A DNA stretch of 64,000 bases from an uncultured Candidatus Saccharibacteria bacterium. GTDB taxonomy: Bacteria > Patescibacteriota > Minisyncoccia > Phycocordibacterales > CAIZLB01. The notes beneath the pieces are model-generated. The model saw nothing but the letters and a program-made list of their open reading frames with translations, was not told the DNA's origin and did no database searches. The position numbers were made by a program, and so were the translations under genes. Positions 1,680 through 51,669 of the stretch are shown here, one piece after another; the first letter of the stretch is position 1; each line of letters starts with the position of its first letter. The DNA is taken from assembly GCA_964450605.1 (NCBI GenBank), contig CAYVEK010000001.1, positions 143,933 to 207,932 on the forward strand. Direction: 5' to 3'.

Positions 1680-2087
1680 TTACAAAAAATCAGCAAAGAT
1701 AAAAGTGCTGATTTTTTGTTTTATGCTTAAAAACAGTTTTGCTTCTAAGTGATGTATTTTATTGATAAGTCTCCGGCTATCAAAATTTTTTATTTGTGAA
1801 ATATGAATTAAACAATCCTTATTTTTTATTTTTCCAATATAAAGTTTGTATTTATTTATATTTTCAACCTTAGAACTAAGAGGTACACATAAAAAAGAGT
1901 TTCTACCATATTTTTTAATTATAAGTACAGGCCTCTCAAAATTTTTACCTTTCCCATCTATTTCATATCCAATGTTAACACCCATGTGTACCCACCAAAT
2001 ATCCCCCTCATCAAAGTAGGGAATATGATCTAGTTTGTTGTTGACTGATTCTTTTACAGAATGCCACTCTTTAAAGTTTTTAAACAT
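1680..2087 (-). CDS. PemK/MazF-like endoribonuclease toxin-domain protein (orphan; no obvious antitoxin partner)
   Basis: Core resembles MazF/PemK: GDIWWV...G.E.DGKGKNFERPVLII...VPLSSK...ISQIKNFDSRRL. An 8-bp perfect inverted repeat gtgtagta-N5-tactacac abuts the start codon. Confidence 0.5.
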   Translation of the reverse strand: MFKNFKEWHSVKESVNNKLDHIPYFDEGDIWWVHMGVNIGYEIDGKGKNFERPVLIIKKYGRNSFLCVPLSSKVENINKYKLYIGKIKNKDCLIHISQIKNFDSRRLINKIHHLEAKLFLSIKQKISTFIFADFL

Positions 2088-2244: not shown

Positions 2245-2290
2245 GCTGTGACAGATTTCGGGTGTGGGATTCGAACCAACCAAACTCGCA
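2245..2290 (-). other. tRNA 3'-end-like fragment (T-arm GGTTCGAATCC plus acceptor 3' strand), no complete tRNA; possible att-site remnant
   Basis: The minus-strand reading ...ggttggttcgaatcccacacccgaaa... has a canonical T-loop TTCGAAT and flanking stem, but no matching 5' acceptor/D/anticodon arms. Confidence 0.4.
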
Positions 2291-2302
2291 ACTACCCACC
2301 AT

Positions 2303-3466
2303 ATGAAGGCAAAAGCCCTTCTCAATACCATTGTGGCGGCCATCCTGGCCGTCTTCGCCCTCTGCATCACCACCCCTGCTTCGGCTACGGAGCCGGTGAA
2401 CAAGTTCACCCTGACCCGGCCTGGTGCTGGCGTCAGTACAGACGTGTTTCTTAGCTTCCTTCCACGGGAAAACCCTTCGAACCCTGCTCTGCAGGGCGAG
2501 ACCTGGGTTACAGCTCGGGATGGCTGGGTCAACATCCTTCGGACCGGCGGTTCTTCCGTCGGTTCTGGGTACACCCTCGCAGCCAAGCGTTCATCACCAG
2601 ACTACAACTGGTTGATCACGTCAAGTTTCCCATCATGGGGCGGGGAACTGGACAGTACGACTCAGTTCGGAAACCGTCATCACTTCGGATTGCGTATTCA
2701 CGCGATTCGCCCCGGGGTGACATTCCGGATGCAGGACGTGACCACAGAGGTCCGGTCCTACATCTATGGTTCATCCGGTTGGGCCGCTGACGGAGTGGTG
2801 AATATCTCCACAAACCTGTCGGTCCTGAACGCTTTCAGGCTCCGGCTTGAAGCAGGGACGGATGGGGTCAATGGGACCAATGATGATCCGGTCGCGACGG
2901 TACAGAGCTCGTCACTCCCATCAACATCGTGCCTCTTCGGAGGTCTCGGTGTTGCCATGGGGGCCTACGGCTCCGGTGATAACTACCAGAAACTGCGCAA
3001 TGTATACAACTATTGCGCAGCAAATCATCTGGTGTTTAAAATTAATGTAAATATCCCGTACACCGAAAACGGCCAACCATTTACCTCGTCCGCATCAGCG
3101 GTCTTCGCTCCGGCGACACAGCAGTGGTCAGACCAGTTGCCGGAAGGTACTGTGATGCCACCACTCAGTCTCTCCATCTCCGAATCAGAACTTCTGTTCG
3201 GTGACAGTGAGAAGGGGCTGTTTCCGGCCACAAACAGTCTGTACGTCGTGGAGAAATCTACTGAACAGCGGTCGTGGACACCGGTCGTTCCAGCAAACTT
3301 CGGCACAGGCCTCCTGACCCCATTCGCTGTCGGGGATTATCTCGCCGGCGCTCCTCGGTATTTCTACAGGGTTCGCCAGCTGATCCCAGCCACCCAGCAA
3401 ACCCTCCGCGGACCGCGGAACAACGTCCCCACCGGACCGCCGATCGGCGACTCTGTGGCACCCTGA
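2303..3466 (+). CDS. Secreted hypothetical protein encoded in a ~58% GC island (likely horizontally acquired)
   Basis: Long ORF with N-terminal signal peptide MKAKALLNTIVAAILAVFALCITTPASA. GC content and codon usage (GC3-rich) differ sharply from flanking genes. No recognisable domain. Confidence 0.6.
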   Translation: MKAKALLNTIVAAILAVFALCITTPASATEPVNKFTLTRPGAGVSTDVFLSFLPRENPSNPALQGETWVTARDGWVNILRTGGSSVGSGYTLAAKRSSPDYNWLITSSFPSWGGELDSTTQFGNRHHFGLRIHAIRPGVTFRMQDVTTEVRSYIYGSSGWAADGVVNISTNLSVLNAFRLRLEAGTDGVNGTNDDPVATVQSSSLPSTSCLFGGLGVAMGAYGSGDNYQKLRNVYNYCAANHLVFKINVNIPYTENGQPFTSSASAVFAPATQQWSDQLPEGTVMPPLSLSISESELLFGDSEKGLFPATNSLYVVEKSTEQRSWTPVVPANFGTGLLTPFAVGDYLAGAPRYFYRVRQLIPATQQTLRGPRNNVPTGPPIGDSVAP

Positions 3467-4481: not shown

Positions 4482-6965
4482 ATGGCCAAAGCAAAACATC
4501 CAGAAAACAATGCCGGAGAAGGCGCACAAGAGCTTCCAGTACATCAGTCTGTCATCCCTAGAAATATTATCGAAGAGATGCAGGAGTCGTATATCGACTA
4601 TGCCATGTCTGTTATTACAGACCGTGCTCTTCCCGACGTTCGAGATGGTTTAAAACCTGTACAGCGACGTATTTTGTATTCTATGCAAAAACTTGGTCTT
4701 AATCCATCTGCTAAGTATCAGAAAAGTGCCAAAGTAACTGGAGATACTATGGGTAACTATCACCCACACGGTAACATGGCCATCTATGACACTATGGTAA
4801 ACATGGTGCAGGACTTTAACATGCGGTATCCGCTTGTATGGGGTCAAGGTAACTTCGGTAACATTGATGGGTATCCCGCTGCGGCTGAACGATATACTGA
4901 GGTGCGTATGCAAAAGATCACTCCATATATCCTTGCTGATCTTGAAAAGAATACAGTCGACATGCGACCAAACTATGATGGTACACGAAAAGAGCCAAGT
5001 GTGATGCCGACTATTATTCCAAACATGCTTTTGAATGGTACTTTAGGTATTGCGGTAGGTATGGCAACAAACATTCCTCCTCACAACTTGGGAGAGATTG
5101 TCGATGCTACAACTCATCTTATAGATAATCCAGAAGCATCAACTTCTGATCTACTGCAGTTTGTAAAAGGTCCTGATTTTCCAACAGGAGGTATTGTATT
5201 TAATGAAAAAGATATTGAGATCGCCGAGACTCACGGTAAAGGAGGTGTGGTTGTTCGAGGTGAAGCTGAGATTGTTGAAGAAAAAGCGGGACAATCAAAG
5301 ATTATTATCAGCTCTATACCATATCGAGTAAATAAAGCTTCTCTTATAGAGAGTATTGCTGATCTTGTTCGCGAGAAAAAAGTTGAAGGTATCAAAGATA
5401 TTCGTGATGAATCCACAAATGACATACGTGTTGTTATAGAGCTCAAGAACGGAGCATATCCTCAAAATATACTTAACTATTTGTATAAACATACACAGCT
5501 TGAGTCTAAATTCCACTACAACGTTGTTGCACTTGTTGATGGAGTACCACAGACACTTTCTTTGAAAGCTTCTCTTGATCACTTTATTGATCATAGAAAG
5601 ATTGTTATACGACGAAGAACTGAGTTTGATCTAGCAAAAGCAAAGGATCGAGAACATATCTTGCTCGGATTGAAAAAAGCTCTTGATCATATTGATGAGA
5701 TTATTGCCCTCATTAAAAAGAGTAAAGATACTCCAACTGCTCATGCAAACTTGATGAAGGAGTTTAAGTTTTCAGACAGACAGGCAACGGCTATCTTGGA
5801 AATGAAACTGCAGAAGCTTGCTGGTCTAGAGCGAAAGAAGATCGAAGATGAACTTAAAGCTGTACAAGCTTTGATCGAAGATCTTGAAGATATTCTTAAA
5901 AATGCAAAACGAGTTATAAAGATTATCAAAGAAGAGCTTTCTGCTGTTAAAGAAAAATTTGGAGATGCACGGCGTACTCGTGTTGTAAAACATGGTGTAC
6001 AGAACTTTTCACTTGAAGATATTATTCCAGATGAAGAAAGTGTTCTCGTACTTACTGCCGGAGGATATATCAAACGAACAAATCCAGATGAGTATCGAAA
6101 GCAAAAACGAGGTGGTGTAGGGGTTGTTGATGTTGATGTAAAAGAAGAAGACTTTATCACACATCTTGTGTCTGCTTCTATGCATAGTGATCTGCTGTTC
6201 TTTACTGATAAAGGAAAAGCGTATCAGATCAAGATGTATGATATTCCAGAAGGAAAGCGAGCTACACGCGGAAAATCTATCATGAACTTCTTGTCACTTT
6301 CTGAAGATGAGAAAGTAACTTCTATTCTTCCGATGCCAAAAGAAGTTAAGAGTTCAAATCTATCTCTGATGCTTATTACAAAGCTTGGAGTAGGAAAGAG
6401 AGTCGCGCTCGATAGTTTCAAAGATGTACGACGAAGCGGTATTATTGCCATCACACTTGATGCTGGAGATCAATTGATATCTGCCTCATTTGTAGAAGAA
6501 AAAGATTCTGTAATACTGGTTGCAAGTGATGCGCAGTCTATACGATTTGCTGTGGATGAGATACGAGAGATGGGGCGATCTGCCGGAGGTGTCCGAGCAA
6601 TGAAACTTGATAAAGGTGAGACTATAGTTGGAGCGATACCTGTGAAAGCGTCATCAAAAGATGCAGCTGAACTTCTTACTGTTTCTGCAAATGGATATGG
6701 AAAGAAAACTCCACTTGATGAGTATAAAGTACAAGGACGAGGTGGATCAGGTATTAAAACATTTAAAGTTACAGATAAGACAGGATCTTTGATGGCGGCA
6801 CAAGTTGTAACTGATGATATTGAAGAGATAGTGGCGATATCAAAGAAGAGTCAGGTTATTCGATGTGAACTTAAAGAGATACCAAGTCTTGGACGAGATA
6901 CACAAGGTGTACGCATTATGAAGCTTCGAGAAGGAGATTCTCTTGCATCAGTTATTGGAGTCTAG
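4482..6965 (+). CDS. gyrA: DNA gyrase subunit A (type IIA topoisomerase A subunit)
   Basis: QRRILYSM, YHPHGN...IYDTMV active-site region, GyrA-box-like QKRGGVG, C-terminal beta-pinwheel repeats; 827 aa. Confidence 0.85.
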   Translation: MAKAKHPENNAGEGAQELPVHQSVIPRNIIEEMQESYIDYAMSVITDRALPDVRDGLKPVQRRILYSMQKLGLNPSAKYQKSAKVTGDTMGNYHPHGNMAIYDTMVNMVQDFNMRYPLVWGQGNFGNIDGYPAAAERYTEVRMQKITPYILADLEKNTVDMRPNYDGTRKEPSVMPTIIPNMLLNGTLGIAVGMATNIPPHNLGEIVDATTHLIDNPEASTSDLLQFVKGPDFPTGGIVFNEKDIEIAETHGKGGVVVRGEAEIVEEKAGQSKIIISSIPYRVNKASLIESIADLVREKKVEGIKDIRDESTNDIRVVIELKNGAYPQNILNYLYKHTQLESKFHYNVVALVDGVPQTLSLKASLDHFIDHRKIVIRRRTEFDLAKAKDREHILLGLKKALDHIDEIIALIKKSKDTPTAHANLMKEFKFSDRQATAILEMKLQKLAGLERKKIEDELKAVQALIEDLEDILKNAKRVIKIIKEELSAVKEKFGDARRTRVVKHGVQNFSLEDIIPDEESVLVLTAGGYIKRTNPDEYRKQKRGGVGVVDVDVKEEDFITHLVSASMHSDLLFFTDKGKAYQIKMYDIPEGKRATRGKSIMNFLSLSEDEKVTSILPMPKEVKSSNLSLMLITKLGVGKRVALDSFKDVRRSGIIAITLDAGDQLISASFVEEKDSVILVASDAQSIRFAVDEIREMGRSAGGVRAMKLDKGETIVGAIPVKASSKDAAELLTVSANGYGKKTPLDEYKVQGRGGSGIKTFKVTDKTGSLMAAQVVTDDIEEIVAISKKSQVIRCELKEIPSLGRDTQGVRIMKLREGDSLASVIGV

Positions 6966-6998
6966 ATATTTACAAAGGAAACGCGTATACTTATATAC

Positions 6999-8315
6999 AT
7001 GAGTATTGTAAAAGAACTTCACCTATTTCAGATTATTACACTTGGTATATTTTTAGTTGTCGGACTTGCTGGTGTTGCCTTTTTTGCAACCAACAAATCT
7101 GCAGGAACTAAAACAGGATATGAGCCAGTTATATGGGGAACTATTCCAAAATCAGTCATCGATGAATCAATGACGTATTTTCGTGAACAGGGTACAAATC
7201 CTCGTTTCTCATATGTAGAGTATTCAGAAGAGGGTTTTGAACAAACACTTTTAGTGGCTATTGCAAACGGCACAGGTCCAGATGCAATTATATTTCCAAG
7301 TAATATGTTCTATACTCAAGCAAGTCGTCTAGCTACTATACCAAATGAGTCTGTGTCTGCTAAAAATTTTGCCGAAACATACATAGACGCAGGTCAGACA
7401 TTTGCAGTGCAGGGCGGTATAAAAGGTTTTCCTTTGGTTACTGATCCTATGGTTATGTATTGGAATCGAGACATATTTTCATCTGTTGGTTTACTAAACC
7501 CTCCTAAGACATGGGCAGAAGTTGGACAGATGACCTCAAAGATAGTTCGTAAAACAGATAACGGTGTTATCACTCGTGCATTTGTTGCACTTGGTGAATA
7601 TAATAACGTGGATTACGCGAAGCGTATATTATTTACTTTGATGTCACAGGTAGGTGTAAAGCTTACATATTATAGTCCACAATTTGGAGGATATACATCT
7701 GGGCTTATAAATAGTGCTGATGGTGGGGAAGAAAAATCTCGTTCTGTTCTTACGTATTACACTGAGTTTGCTAATCCAGTTAAAGCTTCTTACACTTGGA
7801 ATAGATCTCTTATAAATTCACGAGAAGCATTTCTATCAGGTGATTTGGCGGTATACTTTGGTCCTGGTAGTGAGCTCGAGTATATACGGAGTCGTAATCC
7901 AAATCTAAACTTTAGAGTTGCTCCTATGCCTCAAGAAAATCAAAGTGCAAAATCCGTACACGGTAAAACATATGCGGTTGGAGCGTTGGTGACATCAAAA
8001 GATGTAAACTCAACTATAACAGAGCTTGCAACTTTCTTTACTCCAACACAGACAATAACAGCACTTTCAACTGCTTTAGATATGGCTCCGGCTCGTAGAG
8101 ATGTACTTGCTACATCTAAAGAGGGTCAATCAGACATAAATGTTGGTGCTATTTATGAATCAGCCGTGTATGCCAAGGACTGGGTAGATCCAAATCCAAC
8201 TTCTACCTCAGCCATATTTAAAACAATGATAGAATCCGTTACCTCAGGGCAACAGACATTGTACGAATCATTACAAGACGCTTCAAACCGACTTTCTGCT
8301 TTATTTCAACAATAA
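6999..8315 (+). CDS. Membrane-anchored extracellular protein (N-terminal TM helix; function unknown, possibly solute-binding-like) preceding the pilin array
   Basis: N-terminal hydrophobic helix LFQIITLGIFLVVGLAGVAFF, then a large soluble domain; no confident motif. Confidence 0.3.
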   Translation: MSIVKELHLFQIITLGIFLVVGLAGVAFFATNKSAGTKTGYEPVIWGTIPKSVIDESMTYFREQGTNPRFSYVEYSEEGFEQTLLVAIANGTGPDAIIFPSNMFYTQASRLATIPNESVSAKNFAETYIDAGQTFAVQGGIKGFPLVTDPMVMYWNRDIFSSVGLLNPPKTWAEVGQMTSKIVRKTDNGVITRAFVALGEYNNVDYAKRILFTLMSQVGVKLTYYSPQFGGYTSGLINSADGGEEKSRSVLTYYTEFANPVKASYTWNRSLINSREAFLSGDLAVYFGPGSELEYIRSRNPNLNFRVAPMPQENQSAKSVHGKTYAVGALVTSKDVNSTITELATFFTPTQTITALSTALDMAPARRDVLATSKEGQSDINVGAIYESAVYAKDWVDPNPTSTSAIFKTMIESVTSGQQTLYESLQDASNRLSALFQQ

Positions 8316-8333
8316 TATTAAATAATCAAACAT

Positions 8334-8678
8334 ATGCAACAGCAATCATTTTTTAAAGGTTTACAATCTTGCTTTGGAGACGCTGATGGAGGGTGTGGGT
8401 GGCAAGAAATCTCTGCTTTAGTTGAAAACTTGTTACAAACACTGTTTATCATAGGTTTGTTTGCAGCGGGTTGTATGGTTGCATATGCTGGTTGGCTTTT
8501 GATTAGAAAAGGTAGTGACGCATCAGCACGAACTCGTGCACGAAAAATATTTCAAAATATTGTTTTAGGACTAATACTACTATTCTCAGCATACTACATC
8601 GTAGATCTTGTATTAACTAAAGTTGGTGTTACTGATGAGTTCCGACAGGGATTTATTGAACCAGGAAAAACAGAGTAA
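8334..8678 (+). CDS. TrbC/VirB2-like (T4SS-type) pilin paralog 1
   Basis: Small protein with a two-helix hydrophobic hairpin (LFIIGLFAAGCMVAYAGWLL ... IVLGLILLFSAYYIVDLVL) separated by a short basic loop, as in TrbC/VirB2 pilins. Confidence 0.55.
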   Translation: MQQQSFFKGLQSCFGDADGGCGWQEISALVENLLQTLFIIGLFAAGCMVAYAGWLLIRKGSDASARTRARKIFQNIVLGLILLFSAYYIVDLVLTKVGVTDEFRQGFIEPGKTE

Positions 8679-8716
8679 TCTGGTACAAAGTCATATAAAA
8701 GGGTATAATTTAAAAC

Positions 8717-9304
8717 ATGAAAAAATATATTTTTTATGTTTTAAGTTGTTTTGTACTACTCTTCGTATGTACAGTGCAAGTTCGCGCAGACTTTGATCTT
8801 TTTGATCAACCTCTTCCTAACGATACTACAGGAGGTCTTTTAGATGTTGATACTAGCTTGGGTAATACTTCTGCAAACACTAATACAAATACAGAAACTC
8901 CTGTACAAACTACCTCTGAGAATACTTCTGGCACTCCTGTACAAACTACCTCTGAGAATACTTCTGGAGACAAGCCTGTACAAGATACTTCAAAGAATAG
9001 TTTGAAAAAGAACCCTAAATACCTCATCACCAACCCTCTTGGAAAGACAACAAGTTTACAAGATGTGATTCTAAACGTTGTTAAAGTTGTTCAAATATTA
9101 CTCATGATGGCTGCTGTTGTGTACATCATATGGGCCGGTTTCTTATTTGTGACTGCAAAAGGTGACACTGCAAAAGTTGTAAAAGCTCGAAATTCGCTTC
9201 TGTGGGCAATGGTCGGAGTGGCTCTCGTACTTGGTGCTCAGGTGATAGTAACGACTATTAAAAACTCAGTTAACAGTGTTTTTTATGACACAACTAAAAA
9301 ATAA
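8717..9304 (+). CDS. TrbC/VirB2-like pilin paralog 2 with Thr/Ser-rich repeat N-terminal region
   Basis: Signal peptide; tandem TSENTSG(T/D)(K)PVQ(T/D)TS repeats; C-terminal hairpin VVQILLMMAAVVYIIWAGFLFV ... LLWAMVGVALVLGAQVIV. Confidence 0.55.
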   Translation: MKKYIFYVLSCFVLLFVCTVQVRADFDLFDQPLPNDTTGGLLDVDTSLGNTSANTNTNTETPVQTTSENTSGTPVQTTSENTSGDKPVQDTSKNSLKKNPKYLITNPLGKTTSLQDVILNVVKVVQILLMMAAVVYIIWAGFLFVTAKGDTAKVVKARNSLLWAMVGVALVLGAQVIVTTIKNSVNSVFYDTTKK

Positions 9305-9308
9305 TCGT

Positions 9309-9830
9309 ATGAAAAAATATATTTTACTTCTATCTATGTACCTTTCGTTGTCTGCTGTTTTTGTAGTATCTGCTGCAAATGTCTCTTTACCTAACATACC
9401 AGTAACACAAACGGATCAATTTGGTGATACAACAACTACAAATGCCGGAGGTATAATAAATACCTCTGCTGATAATGCTGTTTCAGGAACAAACATCCAA
9501 TACACTACACCAGGTGTACAATATCCAACTGTTAATACGCCTACAAACACCTCAAAATTATCAATAAGTGGTCTAGTGGCTTGGTTTGTTGAGCTTATAA
9601 ACTATATTATAAAGTTTATTTTAACACTGGCCCTCATTGCATTTTTGTGGGGAATATTCAGACTTGTGTTTGTGGATGCGACAAATGAAGCTGAAAGAGC
9701 TAAGGCTAAAAAATTCATTCTTTGGGGAATAGTTGCATTGTTTGTAATGACTTCTGTGTGGGGGCTGGTTAACGTGCTACACTCTTCAGTATTTGGCGGT
9801 AGTACCTTGATTATTCCACAATTAAAGTAG
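9309..9830 (+). CDS. TrbC/VirB2-like pilin paralog 3
   Basis: Signal peptide MKKYILLLSMYLSLSAVFVVSA; C-terminal FILTLALIAFLWGIFRLVF ... FILWGIVALFVMTSVWGLVNVL. Start chosen at the internal Met (9309) rather than the overlapping 9276. Confidence 0.55.
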   Translation: MKKYILLLSMYLSLSAVFVVSAANVSLPNIPVTQTDQFGDTTTTNAGGIINTSADNAVSGTNIQYTTPGVQYPTVNTPTNTSKLSISGLVAWFVELINYIIKFILTLALIAFLWGIFRLVFVDATNEAERAKAKKFILWGIVALFVMTSVWGLVNVLHSSVFGGSTLIIPQLK

Positions 9831-9888
9831 TATAATAAAGTTATAGGTTATATTAATAAATAATTTTTAAAAATTTCTTACATATTTT

Positions 9889-10290
9889 ATGAAATCTAAA
9901 TTTTCTATACTAGCAATCGCATTAACACCGTTTCTTGCAAATGCACAGCTAGGATCAGAGGGATTTGCCTCAACAGTAGATGGATTTTTGGCCTACTTAC
10001 TATATATTGCAGGTCGAGCTCTTCCTCTTCTTATTCTTGCCGCTCTACTATTCTTCTTGTGGGGAATATTTAAAATATTCTTTTGGGACAGAGGACACGA
10101 TGATCCTAAAAACAAAACTTTTATCCTTTGGGGAGTTGTTGCATTGTTCGTGATGGTATCTGTATGGGGACTTGTAAACGTTCTACGAGATACACTACGA
10201 CTTGATAACTCACGAGTTCCATCTGCTCCAGCTATTCCATTTCCGGCAGCGCCTGCCACAAACTCAGGTGGCTTAGCTCCAGCAAGATAA
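9889..10290 (+). CDS. TrbC/VirB2-like pilin paralog 4
   Basis: Signal peptide; LLILAALLFFLWGIFKIFF ... FILWGVVALFVMVSVWGLVNVL, near-identical C-terminal motif to paralog 3. Confidence 0.55.
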   Translation: MKSKFSILAIALTPFLANAQLGSEGFASTVDGFLAYLLYIAGRALPLLILAALLFFLWGIFKIFFWDRGHDDPKNKTFILWGVVALFVMVSVWGLVNVLRDTLRLDNSRVPSAPAIPFPAAPATNSGGLAPAR

Positions 10291-10303
10291 TACATTTTTA
10301 CGT

Positions 10304-10337
10304 AAAAAGCCTCGAGTGTACTCGAGGCTTTTTATTT
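10304..10337. terminator. Bidirectional rho-independent terminator
   Basis: Perfect hairpin agcctcgag-tgta-ctcgaggct, flanked by an A-run upstream and a T-run downstream. Confidence 0.75.
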
Positions 10338-10351
10338 TGTATACTTAATAC

Positions 10352-10648
10352 ATGCAAGAAGTATATAAACTTATCAGTAAGATAAATGAATACGTATTAA
10401 ATCCTATCATTCTTATCGTATTTGCCATCGCACTCCTTTTCTTTATGTTTGGAATTTTTGAATATTTATGGAAATCACACAAAGATCCGGCGGCTATACA
10501 GGCAGGGGCAAAGCATATAGGTTGGGGTATAGTCGGTATGCTTATTATGATATCTGTATTTGGAATTATACAGGTCATAATAAACACAATACCTGTGGAT
10601 TCAAATGCTAAAGATGCAGTAAAAAAGGTTATACCTATCAATAACTAA
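10352..10648 (+). CDS. TrbC/VirB2-like pilin paralog 5 (short form)
   Basis: 98 aa; two hydrophobic helices IILIVFAIALLFFMFGIF and IGWGIVGMLIMISVFGIIQVI separated by a charged loop. Confidence 0.5.
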   Translation: MQEVYKLISKINEYVLNPIILIVFAIALLFFMFGIFEYLWKSHKDPAAIQAGAKHIGWGIVGMLIMISVFGIIQVIINTIPVDSNAKDAVKKVIPINN

Positions 10649-10694: not shown

Positions 10695-10702
10695 GTGGAC
10701 AG

Positions 10703-11302
10703 TTATCGGTTTGGTGTAAACCGGAAAATTGCCCGAATCTTTGAAGTAGGCTCAACGGGACGTAATCCTAGTTCGAGCGTTTCCCCAAAGATAGCTTTTT
10801 GAGTTTCTCGGGATATTTTGTCCCGATTGACCCCGTCAGGGCGGATCAGCCACGATCCGCCTTTGCTATCCCACAGTAGTTGCTTGTTCGAGCGCCCTGT
10901 GGGTGACGCGGAGTCTCTGACTGTGAGGAGGAGGATTGCTCCGTCTCCATATACAGTCAGACCCCATACTTTATCCCATGTCGAGGTTTTTGGAGCCCCG
11001 ACTGGGCTTGGTTTCCACAACTCCTCTCCAGAGGAGGTGGACTCTTTTTCTACCCAAGCAGGAACTGTATCCGACTTGGTCGTGGTGCCAGAGGCTGAAG
11101 GCTCTGGGCTTGTGGTCGTGATGGGGTCACGAGGGTTGGGCAGGGCGCCCGCTTCTCGCATACCCTCAGAAGTTTCTCGACGAATGTCTTCGCCGATAGC
11201 TCCTACAACCGTCTCCGCTGCTCCTGTGTAGGGATTGGCGGTTGGTGATGTCAATTTGGTTACTAGTATCACCACTACTAGTAAGCCTATGATGTACTTC
11301 AT
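10703..11302 (-). CDS. Secreted hypothetical protein in a GC-rich island
   Basis: Signal peptide MKYIIGLLVVVILVTKLTSP; Pro/Thr/Ser-rich, no known motif; ~57% GC versus the AT-rich surroundings; 4-bp overlap with the upstream gene (operon). Confidence 0.55.
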   Translation of the reverse strand: MKYIIGLLVVVILVTKLTSPTANPYTGAAETVVGAIGEDIRRETSEGMREAGALPNPRDPITTTSPEPSASGTTTKSDTVPAWVEKESTSSGEELWKPSPVGAPKTSTWDKVWGLTVYGDGAILLLTVRDSASPTGRSNKQLLWDSKGGSWLIRPDGVNRDKISRETQKAIFGETLELGLRPVEPTSKIRAIFRFTPNR

Positions 11303-12543
11303 ATTCTTGTCACAACGACTGGAGGATTGCCACCTCCGCGGTTGTTTCGTTTTTTGCTGTTTTTACCACTGCCACCACTTTGGCGGATATCCAACCCTTT
11401 AAGAGCCCCCTCCTCGACCTGTATAAATCTCAGAAGTTGTTCGTCGCTCATTGTTGGGAATATCCGTCTCGCCTCATCCATCTTCGGCCCCTTGTTGCGG
11501 ATGTTCAAGGTCTCCCTCTGATCATCCAGTGCCTGCTTCTTGAGGGCAAGCATAGCCTCTTCTATCGACGGCGGGTTTTCAACCTTCGTGATTGTGATCG
11601 ACGAAAGCTGATAGCCGCTATCTATGAATCGTTGCTGGATTGTTCCGGTATTCAAGGCCTGGTCTGAAACCCCTTTAAGATTGCCGCGTATTTGAGACAC
11701 GGTAGTCCAGAAGGCGTCGCTGAGGACGACTGTTAGTGCTCCAAGCGCATAGAGGCGCATTTGGTCTGTTGACAGCGGATTAGTTTTTGATTTTTTTGGA
11801 TCGAAACAAACCACCACAACGGTACCAGTTATATGCGCCGGGAACTCACTTCCGTTGGACCCGCACTGTACTACAGCATCAGTTTTGCCAGCCTCTCTTT
11901 CAAGGGGATAGGTTAACTTCTTGCCGTCGACATTTTCCCAGGACATGCCTAAGAAACTCGGAAGCAGTTGGTTTATAGAACCTCCAACTGCTTTATTCAG
12001 AATTGAAAGTCGGCGTCCCAAGAAGGAACCGACCCCGATCGTGTCGATAGGAACGATCTTTTTGTTGAGTATGCACTCCTTGAAGAAGGAGCGAAAAACC
12101 CAGAAAAAGATTATTCCTGCAGTCAGCATCACTGAGAAGAAATAGTACAGTCCTCCTGGAAGGAGAAACAGTACAATCTTCTTTGACAGCCATAAACTGC
12201 TGTTGATGAGTGCTATGTGAAGGCCGGCCGATGCGAGCAGACATCCAATGTTGCTGTGTTGCCCCTTCTTTCTCAGTATTCCGAAGCCTGCACCGATGAG
12301 AATGGTCGCTATAATCCAGGACCATCTCCACATTTCGTCTAGAGCAGCCTGTTCAGGCGATACTCTCGTGCCCAGGTTCTCCGACCTGGGGAATGCTTTT
12401 GAGCCAGAGCTCTGCTGTAATCCTGCAATGGCGTCTCCGAAGAACCACCATACACAGAATATAAGCAGAGCAATGCTCAAGAACCAAAAGACCAAGTTGC
12501 GGATTGCTTTTCCGCGACGACTGGTCGGTCTTAATATGCTCAT
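11299..12543 (-). CDS. Membrane protein with N-terminal TM helices and a C-terminal SPFH/band-7-like region, in a GC-rich island
   Basis: Multiple hydrophobic helices in the first ~160 aa; C-terminal segment resembling stomatin/prohibitin (...ITKVENPPSIEEAMLALKKQALDDQRE...); high GC. Confidence 0.5.
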   Translation of the reverse strand: MSILRPTSRRGKAIRNLVFWFLSIALLIFCVWWFFGDAIAGLQQSSGSKAFPRSENLGTRVSPEQAALDEMWRWSWIIATILIGAGFGILRKKGQHSNIGCLLASAGLHIALINSSLWLSKKIVLFLLPGGLYYFFSVMLTAGIIFFWVFRSFFKECILNKKIVPIDTIGVGSFLGRRLSILNKAVGGSINQLLPSFLGMSWENVDGKKLTYPLEREAGKTDAVVQCGSNGSEFPAHITGTVVVVCFDPKKSKTNPLSTDQMRLYALGALTVVLSDAFWTTVSQIRGNLKGVSDQALNTGTIQQRFIDSGYQLSSITITKVENPPSIEEAMLALKKQALDDQRETLNIRNKGPKMDEARRIFPTMSDEQLLRFIQVEEGALKGLDIRQSGGSGKNSKKRNNRGGGNPPVVVTRI

Positions 12544-12621: not shown

Positions 12622-12650
12622 ATAAAAACCTTATAAAATAAGGGTTTTTT
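12622..12650 (-). terminator. Terminator closing the minus-strand tRNA operon
   Basis: Hairpin aaccttat-aaaa-taagggtt; on the minus strand it is followed by a T-run (A-run on the plus strand). Confidence 0.55.
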
Positions 12651-12696
12651 GAGATACAATGCAAGCAAAAAACGCACCCAGTTTTGCTAGACACGT

Positions 12697-12760
12697 TTTT
12701 GTTTGTGGGCAAGGAGGGACTAGGTCCTTACAGGACCAGTATACCTTTGCCATATTCTCA
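12697..12760 (-). pseudogene. Pseudo-tRNA / duplicated 3' end of tRNA-Leu (25-nt exact repeat of the tRNA-Leu 3' end plus flank; T-arm missing)
   Basis: ttttgtttgtgggcaaggagggact at 12697-12721 is identical to 12878-12902 (last 16 nt of tRNA-Leu plus 9 nt of flank). Continues as an acceptor-like 5' strand and one hairpin but lacks a T-arm. Confidence 0.6.
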
Positions 12761-12886
12761 TATGCTCCGCATATTCGAATACAAGGCAAAGCTTTTCTCG
12801 TCCCTCACGGACATGCAACTATGCATGTCCTCTTGCCCAAACGAAAACAAGCATCCTCGCTTTCGCTCGGACACTTGTTTTGTTTG

Positions 12887-12969
12887 TGGGCAAGGAGGGA
12901 CTCGAACCCTCAACCCTTGCGGGACTAGTTCCTAAGACTAGCGCGTATACCAATTCCGCCACTTGCCCA
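12887..12969 (-). tRNA. tRNA-Leu (anticodon UAG), type II with long variable arm
   Basis: Manual fold: acceptor GGGCAAG/CTTGCCC, anticodon stem ctagt/actag with loop cTTAGga, variable hairpin tcccgcaaggg, T-arm gagggTTCGAGTccctc. Confidence 0.85.
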
Positions 12970-12987
12970 TATTCTGCTATTGCAGGT

Positions 12988-13060
12988 CCGTCTAGTAGGA
13001 TTCGAACCTACGACCAATTGCTTAAGAGGCAACTGCTCTACCAACTGAGCTATAGACGGG
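12988..13060 (-). tRNA. tRNA-Lys (anticodon CUU)
   Basis: Manual fold: acceptor ccgtcta/tagacgg, D-arm gctcagttggtagagc, anticodon loop ctCTTaa, T-arm gtaggTTCGAATcctac. Confidence 0.85.
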
Positions 13061-13080
13061 AAATGTTTGTTTTACTCTGT

Positions 13081-13153
13081 GTGGACCCGAGGGGATTCGA
13101 ACTCCTGACCTCCTCAGTGCAAATGAGGCGCTCTACCAACTAAGCTACGGGCC
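13081..13153 (-). tRNA. tRNA-Ala (anticodon UGC)
   Basis: Manual fold: acceptor gggcccg/cgggtcc with the G3:U70 Ala identity pair, anticodon loop ttTGCac, T-arm aggagTTCGAATcccct. Confidence 0.85.
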
Positions 13154-13260
13154 CTTCGTCTTCAATACTACTATATTATTTTTAAAAATACAATACTATA
13201 TGTATCTTTATCTTTTCTTCGGTAAAACTTTATCATAGTGCTGATAGACTTTATTCAACT

Positions 13261-14156: not shown

Positions 14157-14379
14157 TAAGGTTTTTGGTTTGATTTATTCTCCAGATGTGATATAGTTCT
14201 CATATTATGAAATTAGTATCATCACTCAAGAGAAAAGATCTTCGACAAGGGGAGATTATCGTACGACGAGGAAAACATCTCTATCGAATCAATAAAAAGA
14301 ATCGAAAACGAAACGCAAAACAAGGGTAAAACCCTTGTTTTTGTTTGGTGTATATGGTTTAGGTTGCTATCATGTATAT

Positions 14380-15870
14380 ATGAAAAACAAAGCTTTGTAT
14401 GTGATAGTTGTAGCAATATGTTTTATTGGGATTATACTTGGAGTTAGTTATTTTGCTCAAAGACAGTCAAAAACTGTTATTTTACAAGACAAAAAACAGG
14501 ACATTTCGACCTCAAAAAACGATCAAAAAGACAGCATGGCGCAGACGCTAGTATCTCTTAGATTTGCAGGTGATATATTACCAGCTCGTGCTGTAGAGCT
14601 AACTATGCGTAAAAACGGGTATATGTACCCATTTGAAAAGATTCGTCAGGAGCTTGCTGATGCTGATATAACATTCGCAAACTTAGAATCACCACTTATA
14701 GGTACCAAAACAACCGGAAGGACTACACCTGGCGGAACAACTGTTTTTCGAGGAGATGTTGATTTTGCAACAACTCTAAAAGAGGTGGGTATAGATGTGG
14801 TTTCCTTGGCAAACAATCATATGAAAGATCAGGGTCAAAAGGGTATAGAGAGTACACTTACAACTCTAGATCAGATAGGTCTAAAACACGCCGGAGCAGG
14901 TCTTAACAGTGCTCAGGCTGAACAACTTGCAGTTATCGAAGTAGATAAAGGCATGGAGGGGGTTATCAAGGTAGGTTTTTTAGCTTTCAACGATGCTGAC
15001 GTTGTGCCTGAAAGCTATCACGCTACTGAAAAACAATCTGGTACAAATATTATGGATGTGGATAAACTTAAAAGATTGGTGGCTGAAAATAGGCCAAAAG
15101 TAGATGTGCTTATAGTGTCCATGCATTCAGGTACAGAGTATGCCAAAAGACCAAATTCAAAACAAATCACTTTTGCCCAAACTGCAATAGATGCCGGTGC
15201 CGATATAGTTATGGGTCACCACCCACACGTTCTCCAGCCGATACAACAGTACAAAGGAAAATACATTTTTTATAGTCTAGGTAACTTTGTATTCGATCAA
15301 CCGTGGCCAGACACGAAACAGAGCCTGATAGCACAGATTGATGTATTTCTGAAAAAAGACTCATCTGGAAAGTGGTCTATACAAGGTCAAAAACCAACTG
15401 TGATACCTCTAGCTATTTACCAGTTTCAACCACAAAAACTAGTATCAGGTACTCCTGAGTATCAAGCTGTTTTGAATCGTTTAGATTTTCCTTACAAGAT
15501 ATTTAAAATAGGAGGTCAAGTACTGCAAGTGGGTATTGCCAGCTCCTCAGAGTCTCGTGAAAAAGGCTTGTCAGGGACGAGTATTTTACCTAAAGGACAA
15601 GGTCTATTGTTTACATTTGATAGGCCAGATAGGTACGGCATATGGATGAAGGATATGAAATACCCTATAGATATATATTGGTTCGATAAGGATTTCAGGC
15701 TTATAGATCAAGCTCTTTCTGTAAAACCAGAAACATACCCAAATGTCTTTTACCCAAAAGCAGATGCGTACTATGTCCTTGAAACAAATGTCCAAGAACT
15801 AATAGATATGTCCTTGACAAAAGACTTGACGGGGGAGTTGACGGATATCGTGTCTTATGATAAAAAGTAG
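14380..15870 (+). CDS. CapA-family (PGA_cap metallophosphatase-like) protein fused to a C-terminal DUF192 domain
   Basis: N-terminal TM; SLRFAGDILPAR, GHHPHVLQP metallophosphatase-like motifs typical of CapA; C-terminal LLFTFDRPDRYGIWMKDMKYPIDIYWFD resembles DUF192. Confidence 0.6.
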   Translation: MKNKALYVIVVAICFIGIILGVSYFAQRQSKTVILQDKKQDISTSKNDQKDSMAQTLVSLRFAGDILPARAVELTMRKNGYMYPFEKIRQELADADITFANLESPLIGTKTTGRTTPGGTTVFRGDVDFATTLKEVGIDVVSLANNHMKDQGQKGIESTLTTLDQIGLKHAGAGLNSAQAEQLAVIEVDKGMEGVIKVGFLAFNDADVVPESYHATEKQSGTNIMDVDKLKRLVAENRPKVDVLIVSMHSGTEYAKRPNSKQITFAQTAIDAGADIVMGHHPHVLQPIQQYKGKYIFYSLGNFVFDQPWPDTKQSLIAQIDVFLKKDSSGKWSIQGQKPTVIPLAIYQFQPQKLVSGTPEYQAVLNRLDFPYKIFKIGGQVLQVGIASSSESREKGLSGTSILPKGQGLLFTFDRPDRYGIWMKDMKYPIDIYWFDKDFRLIDQALSVKPETYPNVFYPKADAYYVLETNVQELIDMSLTKDLTGELTDIVSYDKK

Positions 15871-38036: not shown

Positions 38037-38108
38037 GGCCCTATCGTCTAACGGTTAGGACATCGGCTTCTCAAGCCGGTAATCGGGGTTCGATTCCCCG
38101 TAGGGTCA
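38037..38108 (+). tRNA. tRNA-Glu (anticodon CUC)
   Basis: Manual fold: acceptor ggcccta/tagggtc, anticodon stem tcggc/gccgg with loop ttCTCaa, T-arm cggggTTCGATTccccg. Confidence 0.8.
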
Positions 38109-38136
38109 CCTTCAACAGCTAGCACGAGTAGCATAC

Positions 38137-38165
38137 AAAAATAGCCCCTAGAAGGGCTATTTTTG
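38137..38165 (+). terminator. Rho-independent terminator after tRNA-Glu
   Basis: atagccc-ctagaa-gggctat followed by TTTT. Confidence 0.65.
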
Positions 38166-38172
38166 TCATCTG

Positions 38173-39708
38173 GTGCAAATTAGTCACAATAAGGTATCCT
38201 TATACCATATGTCTATAACCAAGACCGATTTTCTTACATGCTTAGATTGTCCCCAAAATGCATGGTTAAAAATACACCGACCAGATGTGTACAAGAAATA
38301 TCCACTCTCTTCTTTTGAATTAAATATAATAGATACGGGTAATTTGATCGATACTCTGGCTCGAGACTTGTTTCCTGGTGGTATAACAATCCAATCTCGT
38401 GACGACTTCGAACTCACAAAGAAATTAATAGCGGAGAGAACACCTGTGATTTATCAGCCTGTCTTTATTACAAATAAATTTACAGCTGTCTCAGATATTC
38501 TAGTGTGGAATTCTAAAACCAATCTGTATGATCTGTACGAGGTAAAGTCTTCTACTACTTCTGAAGAGAACGGAGGGCGGAAAACAGATGAATACATTGT
38601 GGATATGGCATTTCAAAAAAATGTATTAGATGAGCTTGGTATAAAAATTGGAACATTTAATCTTATTCGAATTAATAAAGAATATGTAAGATTTGGCAAT
38701 ATAGATGTAAGCAGACTTTTCTTAACTGAAAATTTAACAGATCAAGTTGAACAAGCATTGGAGGATGTTAAATTAAAGATGGAGGGTGCTTATGAATTTC
38801 TATCTAAAGAGGTTGAGCCAAAGGGACACTGTGAATGTATTTTTAAGAGTAAAAATTCTCATTGTACTACCTCTAAATACTCAAATCATGATATGCCCGA
38901 ATACTCGGTTCATTCAATATCTCGTATACACAAGAAAAAGCTAATTGATTTAGTTGAACAAGGTATCTTGAACATACATGATGTACCTAAAGATTTTGAG
39001 TTGTCAGAAAATCAAAGACGCCAAGTAGACACTGCTCAATCGGGTAAGGAATTTATTGATCAAAACGGAATATCACAATTTCTTCAAACAATGGAATATC
39101 CGCTAGCTTTTCTTGATTATGAGACTTATCCTTCAGCTATACCGAAATTTGACGGGTATAGTCCATATCAGCAAATTCCATTTCAGTTTTCACTTCATGT
39201 AATTGAATCTATTGGTGGAGATGTTATTCATCATGAATTTTTACACTTAAATGATAAGTGTCCAGATGAATATTTTGCTGATGCACTTGAGAAGTATTTA
39301 CCAAAAAATGGAAGCGTTGTTGTTTGGAATCAGAAATTTGAGAAAGGTATCAATGAACAGATTGGTAAGCATCTGCCAAATCGCGTGGATTTTATGGATT
39401 CAATAAATAGCAGAGTTGTCGACTTAATGATTCCTTTTTTTGGAAAAACAACAATGTACGATCACCCTCAATTTAAAGGTAGTGCCTCAATCAAGTACGT
39501 ATTACCTGCGTTAGTTCCCGAATTATCATATAATGATATGCATATTCAAGAAGGAGGTACAGCGTCAGATACATGGAACAAAATAGTCTCAAGTGAGTAT
39601 TCTGAAAGTGAAAAATTGATTAAAGAACAAGCTCTAAGAGATTACTGCAGACTTGATACTTTGGCGATGGTTGAGATTTGGAAGGTATTAACTAAATCTA
39701 TCCAGTAA
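38173..39708 (+). CDS. Cas4/RecB-like PD-(D/E)XK nuclease (4-Cys cluster) fused to a C-terminal DnaQ-like DEDD 3'-5' exonuclease domain (DUF2779-like architecture)
   Basis: N-terminal CLDC ... D-x-YEVK (PD-D/ExK) ... CECIFKSKNSHC Cys cluster; C-terminal FLDYETY (Exo I), VVWNQKFE (Exo II), YCRLDTLAM (Exo III-like). Confidence 0.5.
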   Translation: MQISHNKVSLYHMSITKTDFLTCLDCPQNAWLKIHRPDVYKKYPLSSFELNIIDTGNLIDTLARDLFPGGITIQSRDDFELTKKLIAERTPVIYQPVFITNKFTAVSDILVWNSKTNLYDLYEVKSSTTSEENGGRKTDEYIVDMAFQKNVLDELGIKIGTFNLIRINKEYVRFGNIDVSRLFLTENLTDQVEQALEDVKLKMEGAYEFLSKEVEPKGHCECIFKSKNSHCTTSKYSNHDMPEYSVHSISRIHKKKLIDLVEQGILNIHDVPKDFELSENQRRQVDTAQSGKEFIDQNGISQFLQTMEYPLAFLDYETYPSAIPKFDGYSPYQQIPFQFSLHVIESIGGDVIHHEFLHLNDKCPDEYFADALEKYLPKNGSVVVWNQKFEKGINEQIGKHLPNRVDFMDSINSRVVDLMIPFFGKTTMYDHPQFKGSASIKYVLPALVPELSYNDMHIQEGGTASDTWNKIVSSEYSESEKLIKEQALRDYCRLDTLAMVEIWKVLTKSIQ

Positions 39709-44662: not shown

Positions 44663-44730
44663 GAATTTACTTTACTTTATCAAATTTTGCCAATAAATAG
44701 TAGTTTAGTGTGTATTAGCGTCAATTTAGA

Positions 44731-46047: not shown

Positions 46048-46405
46048 ATATTAATTAATGACAGACCAGTCAGGGGTGCATAGCTATGCAAAATAGCCGA
46101 AACGTAGCATGGTCGTTTTGGCTATTAGCAAGGCTATATTTTGGCGTTATTATTAATCTAGAATAATAGATATGAAAATGCTATTATTCATTTACAACTA
46201 AATAAGGCGACCTAACCCTATGGAATAAACCCTATAGGTATGGTCATAAAGTCGATCAAGTGTAAAGAACCCGTCATGGGGTTTTGCTTGATCGCCGTAC
46301 TGGGAAACTGGTACGAAGGACTTCGGTCCTTACCCGTGGCGGGCTTTTTGTATACAACAAAATTCTCGCTAGGTTACAAATAATTTAAGCCGATCAAGCA
46401 AAATT

Positions 46406-47194: not shown

Positions 47195-47196
47195 CT

Positions 47197-48705: not shown

Positions 48706-49084
48706 TTTTATCTGTGAATAATTTTGATGAGTTTAAAACTCTTTCGATTGCTTCTGCTTGTTCAGGGGTAAGTTCCTGACCCTGATGTTTGGTAGTCAGC
48801 TCAATCCTGTTTCTATACTTTGGACTTCTGCTAGAAAGCCAAAACCTAAGTGCAGGGAAGCTTTTTTCTTTTATGAGATTTAATAGTTGTGTTTCACTCA
48901 TGTCACTTATGAATTCCTCTCCCTCAATCATTGCCGAATGCATTTGAGCCTCAAATTCTTTATCCTCGTGTTTCCAGCGATAGATTGTGTTTCGAGATAA
49001 ATTTGATTGCTCACAAGCTACTTGAACTATTGGCACTTTCTTGAGACTTTCAAGAAATTTAGTTTTGTTTCTATTTTTCTTCAT
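48686..49084 (-). CDS. Small HTH protein, terminase small subunit-like
   Basis: HTH VACEQSNLSRNTIYRWK; overlaps the terminase large subunit start (operon). Confidence 0.4.
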   Translation of the reverse strand: MKKNRNKTKFLESLKKVPIVQVACEQSNLSRNTIYRWKHEDKEFEAQMHSAMIEGEEFISDMSETQLLNLIKEKSFPALRFWLSSRSPKYRNRIELTTKHQGQELTPEQAEAIERVLNSSKLFTDKIEESND

Positions 49085-50689: not shown

Positions 50690-50720
50690 ATAAATGCTCT
50701 CATGGTGTAAAAATATATGA
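50690..50720. promoter_or_regulatory. Perfect 10-bp inverted repeat (operator-like) in the divergent intergenic region
   Basis: aatgtgacac-gtcg-gtgtcacatt; followed by direct repeats tgtcactttt x2. Confidence 0.4.
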
Positions 50721-51225: not shown

Positions 51226-51229
51226 TCAT

Positions 51230-51661: not shown

Positions 51662-51669
51662 TTAGTGGC

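Follow-up and report, generated by a model that had tools for sequence, protein, structure and literature searches.

In a 64-kb stretch of chromosomal DNA from a Patescibacteria (candidate phyla radiation, CPR) bacterium, which we refer to as the window, a sequence of 25 nucleotides (nt) covering the 3' end of a leucine tRNA gene is found a second time, downstream of that gene. Duplication of a tRNA 3' end is routinely taken as an attachment (att) site, and here the comparative evidence gives a different origin. The duplication is real, and it is best explained by a gene for a tRNA-mimic RNA, which we call W1, and not by an integration scar. The copy at 12697-12721 forms the 3' strand of a conserved structure that derives from a tRNA, shows covariation and lies on the tRNA strand. 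This structure occurs in multiple copies, and across the family the closing stems correspond to those of one given tRNA, in most cases the adjacent one. We consider it probable that the second 25-mer is the 3' end of a structured-RNA gene and that the family as a whole descended from tRNA genes.

Results

The tRNA cluster and the 25-nt repeat

The window carries gyrA, the S13-S11-S4-rpoA-L17 block, SerRS, TopA, DprA and many small proteins resembling type IV secretion system (T4SS) pilins, and its closest species representatives are metagenome-assembled genomes labelled Patescibacteria or Saccharibacteria. The repeat is located at a tRNA operon with the following features:

13081-13154, minus strand: tRNA-Ala(UGC), leading gene of the tRNA operon (ARAGORN; Rfam tRNA model, 68 bits)
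12985-13059, minus strand: tRNA-Lys(CUU) (ARAGORN; Rfam, 76 bits)
12887-12968 (12886 as start in one call), minus strand: tRNA-Leu(UAG), CCA not encoded (ARAGORN; Rfam, 61.6 bits)
12878-12902: repeat copy A, positions 58-73 of tRNA-Leu (16 nt) and 9 nt of A-rich trailer (exact match)
12697-12721: repeat copy B, the 3' strand of helix P1, the 3' acceptor strand and A73 of W1, and 9 nt of trailer (exact match)

The 25-mer, TTTTGTTTGTGGGCAAGGAGGGACT, is present in two exact copies with none expected (100 shuffles), and no third copy that might mark a distant att end is found in the window at up to three mismatches. Read on the minus strand the repeat is AGUCCCUCCUUGCCCA-CAAACAAAA, which corresponds to tRNA-Leu from A58 to A73 followed by the trailer. 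Beyond the 25-mer, near-identity extends for a few more bases with one indel and reaches the 5' arms of two paralogous hairpins, and further segments of tRNA-Leu, their order kept, are detected by alignment between the repeats (repeat families D4, D7 and D9). The same arrangement is 100% identical in the Logan contig L063, an independent assembly, possibly of the same sample. A preliminary description of this DNA, made from the sequence alone, had reported the exact duplication, had assigned copy A to the last 16 nt of tRNA-Leu(UAG) plus 9 nt of flank, had noted the near-identity past the repeat and had traced the second copy to tRNA-Leu. All of this stands, the ARAGORN and Rfam placements agreeing with its assignment of copy A. 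The same description saw downstream of the tRNA an acceptor-like strand and a hairpin without a T-arm, which is correct for a sub-part only, as the whole is the 134-nt structure set out below.

The second copy closes a tRNA-like fold

The heptamer CTTGCCC (CUUGCCC) of the duplicated sequence finds its real partner in GGGCAAG at 12832-12838, a copy of the 5' acceptor strand of tRNA-Leu, with which it forms a perfect 7-bp stem. The structure closed by this stem consists of the following elements, assigned from the fold and listed 5' to 3', followed by the hairpin that precedes it:

12705-12838, minus strand: W1 (subtype Eb), 134-nt member of the tRNA-mimic family (minimum free energy (MFE) fold; covariance models, 152 and 141 bits; covariation)
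12832-12838, minus strand: 5' acceptor strand, GGGCAAG
12809-12830, minus strand: hairpin HP1
12800-12806, minus strand: 5' strand of P1
12792-12799, minus strand: junction GAGAAAAG
12745-12791, minus strand: P2, with tandem GA/GA loop
12738-12744, minus strand: junction GUAUACU
12723-12737, minus strand: hairpin P3
12714-12720, minus strand: 3' strand of P1
12707-12713, minus strand: 3' acceptor strand
12706, minus strand: discriminator A
12839-12885, minus strand: H2, a long A-tract/U-tract terminator-like hairpin between tRNA-Leu and W1 (fold)

In the 5' part the 7-bp acceptor stem is followed by an unpaired A, the 9-bp HP1, a GU linker and the 7-bp P1, the sequence of which (GAGGGAC/GUCCCUC) is that of the T-stem lengthened by 2 bp. 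Enclosed by P1 are the GAGAAAAG junction, the long P2 with its symmetric GA/GA internal loop, GUAUACU, the short P3 and UA, after which the 3' strands of P1 and of the acceptor stem lead to the discriminator A. A single hairpin thus stands where the D and anticodon arms would be, and P1 encloses a three-way junction. The MFE of W1 is -70.7 kcal/mol compared to -36.8 ± 4.3 for shuffled sequences (z = -7.95). The 156 nt between the two repeats are accounted for by H2 and the 5' four-fifths of the W1 structure.

Covariation and strand

Covariation was evaluated by five measures on a model-guided alignment of 10 members from few lineages, and none of 500 shuffles reached any of the five. Standard pairs occupy 95.1% of the 432 pair cells (72.0 ± 1.4 in the shuffles), and double changes are found at 34 of the 45 pairs, against 19.2 in the shuffles, and in 99 cells, against 29.4. 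Sliding the 3' partners by 1-3 columns lowered pairing to 36-50%. All seven acceptor pairs covary, as does every pair of the P2 tip and of P3, and the invariant nucleotides cluster in the junctions (AG, CGU, GAAA(A)GCUUU, the tandem GA/GA, AAAG, UAC(U)G, the GUA loop and (C)GA-UCC). Support that is free of the bias of a model-guided alignment comes from seven copies that, folded singly, give one shared architecture, from RNAalifold, which recovers the same architecture on a plain MAFFT alignment, and from members outside the seed, which retain the pairs despite unrelated sequences.

The covariance models score the sense strand at 141-152 bits and the antisense strand at 26-30 bits, and about 30 G.U cells would turn into A.C mismatches were the opposite strand read; the folded strand is therefore the tRNA strand. 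The family thus shows compensatory changes beyond the shuffle and register controls, combined with strand asymmetry, as is generally expected of a conserved structured RNA.

A family of elements matched to their tRNAs

A first covariance model (R1) was built from five copies linked to tRNA-Leu. Outside this seed it detected a second element in the window, W2, at 78 bits, and copies in related loci (numbered with L), at L053 4425-4558 (85 bits, immediately 3' of tRNA-Ala), L005 8475-8605 (78 bits, 3' of tRNA-Ala) and L055 7247-7413 (47 bits); a partial copy lies 3' of tRNA-Ala in L050. L064, scoring 60 bits, was added by a motif scan of viral contigs and is positioned between tRNA-Ser(GCU) and a second tRNA-Ser, 48 nt before the latter. 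A second model (R2), applied to the 63 loci searched and, with filters off, to the window, gave no additional members. By tRNA, the copies are Leu-linked (W1, L048, L061, L001, L005), Ala-linked (L053, L005, L050), Ser-linked (L064) and Glu-like (W2). The further features in the window are:

52274-52410, plus strand: W2, tRNA-Glu-like family member with closing stem GACCCUA/UAGGGUU, then A and CCA (78 and 108 bits)
38037-38110, plus strand: tRNA-Glu(CUC), resembled by W2 in acceptor stem and T-loop (ARAGORN; comparison)
about 55967-56095, plus strand: W3, decayed fragment (sequence comparison)

Members share a 7-bp acceptor stem with a discriminator base after it, CCA being encoded in some of them (ACCA in L048, in the Eb copy of L001 and in W2); a conserved AG linker; HP1, the lone hairpin replacing the D and anticodon arms; a T-stem-like P1 stacked right under the acceptor stem; and, in place of the T-loop, a module made up of UCGAAAAG or GAGAAAAG, P2 with tandem sheared GA/GA, GU(A/G)UACUG, P3 with its GUA loop, and (C)GA.

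In all members adjacent to a tRNA the closing stems are those of the tRNA immediately upstream. The closing strands of L064, GGAGACG...CGAAUCCUCUCGUCUCC, match tRNA-Ser, and the 3' end of the L053 copy, CCCUCGGGUCCACAG, matches tRNA-Ala including 3 nt of trailer, its 5' strand (GGACUUG vs GGGCCCG) differing by pairing-preserving transitions only. W2 resembles tRNA-Glu(CUC), which lies 14.3 kb upstream on the same strand, has the stem GGCCCUA/UAGGGUC and has CGAUUCC in common with W2. W3 retains the 5' closing strand GTGACCCTAAGCG, CGAAAAG and the 5' half of P2, 95% identical to W2, the remainder being scrambled or truncated.

A smaller 3'-end duplicate was seen in L054 (3100-3160, minus strand), where a mini-hairpin, GCAAG...CUUGCCCACCA, comes after a tRNA-Leu whose anticodon loop is of the CAG type; the hairpin amounts to a minimal acceptor-like duplicate with CCA encoded.

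Related genomes and a 181-bp empty site

Relatives were anchored on the conserved PGA_cap/DUF192 gene (14335-15870), and the Ala-Lys-Leu(UAG) cluster was found at the equivalent place in L001, L003, L004, L005, L048, L050 and L053. No element follows tRNA-Leu in L003, L004, L050 and L053, in which a terminator leads to the next gene; their tRNA-Leu has CCA encoded and a variable arm that differs from that of the window. In L048, L061, L005 and L001, with a neighbouring protein of 54-66% identity, a tRNA-Leu identical to that of the window is followed by a hairpin and a homologous element. L048 is the clearest of these relatives: its acceptor stem GGGCGAG/CUUGCCC and its P1 GAGGGAU/GUCCCUC each contain one wobble pair (G.U and U.G, respectively), its HP1, P2 and P3 have the shape seen in the window with different sequences, and its end, A-CCA, is followed by a terminator. 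Sequence comparison places hairpins homologous to H2 at the equivalent position in L001, L048, L005, L053 and L064.

Two tandem units are present in L001, a subtype lacking HP1 (Ea) and then Eb, which ends in ...UUUUGCCCACCA. Two hairpins beyond W1 help to order the units:

12662-12704, minus strand: hairpin T1 (fold; comparison with L062 and L001)
12624-12650: T2, bidirectional terminator-like hairpin (sequence, fold; conserved in L048, L061 and L062)

The unit order is tRNA-H2-Eb-T1-T2 in the window, tRNA-T1-T2 in L062, tRNA-T1-Ea-H2-Eb-T2 in L001 and tRNA-T1-Ea-terminator in L055, the tRNA being tRNA-Leu in each case. As T1 directly follows tRNA-Leu in L062 and L001, it is the original trailer or terminator of the operon. 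Past T2, a neighbouring gene for a 414-amino-acid (aa) protein has, as read from the sequence, its own promoter-like TTGATT-17-TGTGATAAT, and W1 is therefore not the leader of that gene.

The Ea subtype (L001 8126-8254 and L055 5349-5481, both minus strand) shares P1, the GAGAAAG junction, two hairpins and the tRNA-Leu 3' strand with the other copies and scores just 19-23 bits with R1; its P2 shows compensatory differences between L001 and L055. The CCA end of tRNA-Leu(UAG) is encoded in the element-free clade and in L055 and is not encoded in the window, L001, L005, L048 and L062. By contrast, several mimic copies (L048, L001-Eb and W2) do have CCA encoded.

L062 represents a near-identical strain. 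It shares 99.4% identity with the window across the tRNA cluster and 96.6% across the segment made up of T1, T2 and the beginning of the 414-aa gene. L062 carries a single 25-mer that aligns to both copies of the window, its tRNA-Leu runs straight into T1, and exactly 181 bp are missing, namely H2, the element and one repeat. The empty site that the preliminary description had proposed to look for in relatives thus exists, and at the tRNA-Leu locus an empty L062 contrasts with L001, L048, L061 and L005, where the unit is present. Since four genomes that are more distant also have the unit at this position, and since H2 and Eb are orthologous to those of L001 (88% identity, compared to 72-78% in the flanking coding DNA), the parsimonious interpretation is that L062 lost the unit by recombination between the 25-nt repeats, rather than that the window gained it.

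Few further orthologous loci were found: the 414-aa protein has three database relatives, an exact look-up of the 98-aa neighbour returned the same contig alone, and a metagenome scan with a tRNA-Leu 37-mer of the clade gave two contigs only. The Logan contigs L056-L060, anchored on PGA_cap, end about 1.3 kb upstream, at the tRNA cluster, and as all of them stop there, this suggests that repeats of the W1 type break short-read assemblies and that the element is under-sampled in public data.

These comparisons bear on whether W1 could be a neutral relic, left over from an old tandem duplication of tRNA-Leu, reduced by internal deletions and now decaying, the 25-mer being its last intact piece. 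Ordered pieces of tRNA-Leu are indeed recognizable in W1 (the 5' flank AGAATAT with an acceptor-like GGCAAAG, the D-loop GGTATAC, a hairpin like the anticodon arm, and AGTCCC), tRNA-Leu contains two AGTCCC repeats that could have mediated deletions, and some family copies are visibly degenerate. However, neutral DNA would not hold four helices through 34 compensatory pair changes at 54-66% protein identity, the same core recurs beside tRNA-Ala, beside tRNA-Ser and as a tRNA-Glu-like copy, and the identity of W1 to the Eb copy of L001 exceeds that of the flanking coding DNA. Covariation strongly disfavours a relic, and we regard this origin as very unlikely.

The repeat as a possible integration scar

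The preliminary description had interpreted the duplication as the scar of site-specific integration or excision at the tRNA gene, had suggested that further 25-mers might mark the other att end, and had pointed to a GC-rich island immediately beyond the repeat. The direct repeat of the tRNA 3' end expected of att sites is present, in two exact copies. The att interpretation nevertheless largely fails, as relatives show the same arrangement with nothing in between: no foreign cargo lies between the repeats, which enclose a conserved structured RNA instead, and the search of the window for another att end was negative. Among the window open reading frames (ORFs) of at least 110 aa, scanned with Pfam, NCBIfam and PADLOC, there is no tyrosine integrase (Phage_integrase), and the sole recombinase is a large serine recombinase at 44731-46047, 32 kb from the repeat. 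An 18-mer from the 3' end of tRNA-Leu is held by 11 viral contigs, seven of the matches falling inside ARAGORN tRNA genes on tRNA-rich contigs; in L038, L040, L042 and L044 the exact matches lie outside the tRNA genes called by ARAGORN. Among 16 loci obtained from two motif scans of 2.9 million viral contigs, one (L064) is a true family member, and a phage collection gave no family match.

The GC-rich island is context and not part of the element:

10703-12543, minus strand: 'GC-rich island' with two hypervariable ORFs of 199 and 414 aa (composition, synteny)

The G+C content at about 10.7-12.5 kb is near 50%, compared to about 37% elsewhere, and neither ORF has a family match in the Pfam, NCBIfam and PADLOC scans. 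L048, L061 and L062 each have, at this position, a gene pair that agrees in size and orientation, so that the island is syntenic in relatives and not an insert bounded by the repeat. The 414-aa protein of the window and its equally long L062 counterpart are 93% identical over residues 1-60 and about 30% thereafter, and the L048 homologue has only the N-terminal anchor in common. At the DNA level no alignment between the window and L062 is possible across about 10696-12366 except at 11051-11235, where they are 91% identical, and the unalignable part is not bounded by the 25-mer. Judged from these sequences, the pair is a fast-evolving, hypervariable resident locus; imported cargo is ruled out by synteny and the conserved N-terminus. 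The 414-aa ORF shows no paralogy with the other GC-rich ORF of the window (2264-3466, plus strand; 400 aa, about 51% G+C, no family match), next to which a MazF/PemK toxin gene is located (1680-2087, minus strand).

Variable genes are found near other tRNA genes and family members as well. Directly after tRNA-Glu, the stretch 38110-52270 is of mobile or defence type and encodes a DUF2779 protein, a 1654-aa DUF4011-SF1 helicase-MTES_1575 nuclease, the large serine recombinase at 44731-46047 named above, a terminase large subunit (47197-48705), a Type II DNA methyltransferase (49071-50426) and NUDIX and GNAT proteins. W2 and W3 flank a 3.7-kb cassette composed of an OLD/AriA/GajA-like ATPase gene (52682-54610) and an uncharacterized 282-aa ORF. 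The spacer between tRNA-Ala and tRNA-Lys (window 13060-13080) measures 13-21 nt in the window and L001 and 0.8-2.2 kb in L003, L005, L050 and L053; it is a variable hotspot with inserted genes unrelated between genomes, and a family element, if present, lies right after tRNA-Ala. On the contig of L064, classified as viral, the region 4576-10370 encodes two large serine recombinases, ParB, a RelA/SpoT-domain protein, a methyltransferase and a ResIII helicase, and these genes adjoin the tRNA-Ser/mimic/tRNA-Ser cluster, with a malic enzyme gene on the other side; the segment is probably an integrated element in a host chromosome.

A related possibility is that the family itself is a miniature module for integration or recombination and provides mobile elements of Patescibacteria with a tRNA-like attachment region, at which a recombinase acting in trans crosses over in the T-loop or 3' end of the tRNA and leaves units of hairpin plus element behind. 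W1 would then be a unit stripped of its cargo, and the fold might be one of single-stranded DNA, comparable to integron attC or the CTX phage attP. Strains differ cleanly in having or lacking the 181-bp unit, which is bordered by a 25-nt direct repeat, and the identity to the tRNA begins within the T-loop, from C56 to A58, a sublocation used by many tRNA-targeting integrases. UCGA flanks the junction insert on both sides, the distribution is patchy and some copies are decayed. W2 and the W3 fragment bracket the OLD/AriA-like defence cassette, W2 terminates the 14-kb stretch behind tRNA-Glu with its large serine recombinase, terminase and methyltransferase, L064 adjoins two large serine recombinases and ParB, and the Ala-linked copies edge a hotspot whose genes are unrelated between genomes. 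On the other hand, no tyrosine integrase is found in the scanned ORFs or near W1 or its orthologues, the cargo genes are always outside the repeats, and L064, a chromosomal-looking segment, is the only member recovered from the viral contigs, with none in the phage collection. Large serine recombinases are not known to generate long direct repeats, which also counts against such a module. Moreover, the 5' strands of the acceptor stem and P1 covary with their 3' partners, as expected of a folded transcript and unexplained for hybrid att sites, the T-stem of W2 departs from that of tRNA-Glu by compensatory changes on its two strands, and the G.U pairs and sheared tandem GA indicate RNA. We consider a recombination module unlikely, albeit the most serious of the alternatives.

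Comparison with known RNA families

Rfam 15, searched over the whole window at the gathering threshold and with W1 and W2 at E <= 10, contains no family that matches the element. The Rfam tRNA model matches the true tRNA-Leu and leaves W1 unmatched, the tmRNA models give only a sub-threshold match of tmRNA_permuted (16 bits) overlapping tRNA-Leu, and RtT is without a match at E <= 10. ARAGORN, whether run by default, with introns allowed (-i) or in tmRNA mode (-m), calls nothing on the strand of the element. W1 is accordingly not a canonical tRNA, as it has no D arm, anticodon arm or T-loop cloverleaf and both ARAGORN and the Rfam tRNA model are negative, nor a tmRNA, standard or two-piece, as ARAGORN -m is negative and Rfam returns just the sub-threshold match. 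Compared by eye, the conserved junctions do not appear to fit the hammerhead, other small-ribozyme junctions or a K-turn at P1. In the published literature we found no equivalent RNA. The window does contain a LOOT RNA (RF03000, 77 bits; 46209-46331, plus strand), which adjoins the large serine recombinase gene and has four simple hairpins; on inspection it is unrelated.

A functional tRNA or tmRNA of an unusual type, such as an intron-containing or armless tRNA-Leu isoacceptor or a charged donor of amino acids, might share the acceptor stem and discriminator A73 with tRNA-Leu as W1 does; an ACCA end is encoded in some members, and the L064 hairpin loop UUGGGAA resembles an anticodon loop. Apart from the negative ARAGORN and Rfam results, the HP1 loops measure 3-7 nt with no conserved anticodon and the D arm is absent. 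Furthermore, the Ala-type copy has A3-U70 instead of the G3.U70 identity pair of tRNA-Ala, and the discriminator of the Ser-type copy is A, that of tRNA-Ser being G. A decoding or donor role is the least probable of the explanations considered, and we regard it as highly improbable.

Discussion

Based on these data we propose that W1 and its relatives are tRNA-mimic RNAs, which would be produced when transcription of the tRNA operon reads through into the element on the same strand. Read-through is implied by the L064 element, since another tRNA lies 48 nt downstream of it. Release of the RNA may occur by RNase P at the 5' end and by RNase Z or the CCA-adding enzyme at the 3' end, because the acceptor/T minihelix resembles a tRNA; the tRNA-like scaffold would then serve processing and stability, and the conserved junction module would be the putative working part. 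As the tRNA and its mimic both end in the same 16-21 nt and an A-rich terminator tract, they form short direct repeats. Homologous recombination or gene conversion between such repeats probably keeps the 3' strands identical and also expands, contracts, reshuffles and deletes units, which would explain why the 25-mer of the window is exact and why L062 has lost precisely 181 bp.

Several observations weigh against a tRNA-mimic RNA gene. A terminator-like hairpin always lies between the tRNA and the element and there is no room for a promoter, so that transcription of the element depends on read-through. Decayed copies occur: 3' closure is missing from both copies of L005, mismatches are present in the acceptor stem of L061, and truncation affects L050 and W3. 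L062 can do without the unit, the distribution is patchy, and copies tend toward the edges of variable or defence gene cargo, a pattern that also fits a selfish or recombination-related element. The alignment was fitted to the model, which inflates the covariation figures somewhat, and includes just 10 sequences from few lineages; the interpretation as a whole rests on few sequences of a rarely sampled lineage.

A more specific and rather doubtful variant is that the mimics are matched to tRNA identity and act in trans. Each copy would be paired with its cognate tRNA, sharing its acceptor and T stems, and would present the junction module, possibly a double T-loop-like platform; it could be a decoy or sponge for, e.g., nucleases, nucleotidyltransferase toxins or processing enzymes that recognise acceptor ends. 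Within this same doubtful variant the copies might alternatively be recombination handles, structured sites by which the reduced genomes of Patescibacteria would nucleate variable or defence cassettes at their tRNA loci.

The tRNA-mimic RNA that we favour belongs to an apparently undescribed family, whose members measure about 134 nt, covary very strongly and are absent from Rfam. The family occurs in Patescibacteria, whose non-coding RNAs are barely explored. If expressed, the RNA would offer a handle on the recruitment of tRNA genes into new RNAs, and it may also be relevant to how ultra-small symbiotic bacteria carry out tRNA-directed processing, defence or recombination. With the covariance model such loci can be annotated without being miscalled as island boundaries.

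Among known systems, the attL/attR sites of tRNA-integrated islands, including cargo-less remnants of the cis-mobilizable element (CIME) kind, share with the window a direct repeat of the tRNA 3' end that starts in the T-loop, strain-level presence and absence, an exact empty site and variable genes nearby. They differ in that no integrase was found here and no cargo lies between the repeats, that the intervening DNA is a conserved covarying structure which includes the complementary 5' acceptor strand, and that elements of the W1 type are located at the orthologous position in several species.

In the tRNA-like domain of tmRNA, in bacterial YrlA (Y-RNA-like) and in small RNAs from the 3' external transcribed spacer (3'ETS) of tRNA operons such as 3'ETS-leuZ, mimicry of tRNA or co-transcription with it serves the processing, stability and protein recognition of non-decoding RNA. 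The predicted mimicry or tRNA-operon co-transcription of W1 is of this type, and yet none of the tmRNA, YrlA and 3'ETS families gives a covariance-model match here. tmRNA and YrlA keep a genuine T-loop and have their extra domain elsewhere, whereas in the present family the extra domain replaces the T-loop and the D and anticodon arms are cut to one hairpin.

The closest analogue is E. coli tyrT/tyrV-rttR (rtT RNA, Rfam RtT). In E. coli K-12 the 19-nt 3' end of tRNA-Tyr occurs in six exact copies, including those in three 178-bp units. As in rtT, the unit described here lies directly 3' of a tRNA, on the same strand, and carries an exact copy of the 3'-terminal nucleotides of the tRNA. The rtT unit is co-transcribed with the tRNA operon and processed to a small RNA with no integrase involved, and its number can vary by recombination between the repeats, as we propose for the present family. 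Unlike rtT, to which it has no homology in sequence or structure (the Rfam RtT model is negative here), the Patescibacteria family closes its own acceptor/T minihelix with a 5' acceptor strand and a conserved three-way junction, and it occurs with at least three or four tRNA identities. Hence the kind of RNA is known, being that of small RNAs derived from tRNAs or tRNA operons with rtT as the nearest, and the family, its architecture and the matching to cognate tRNAs appear to be undescribed.

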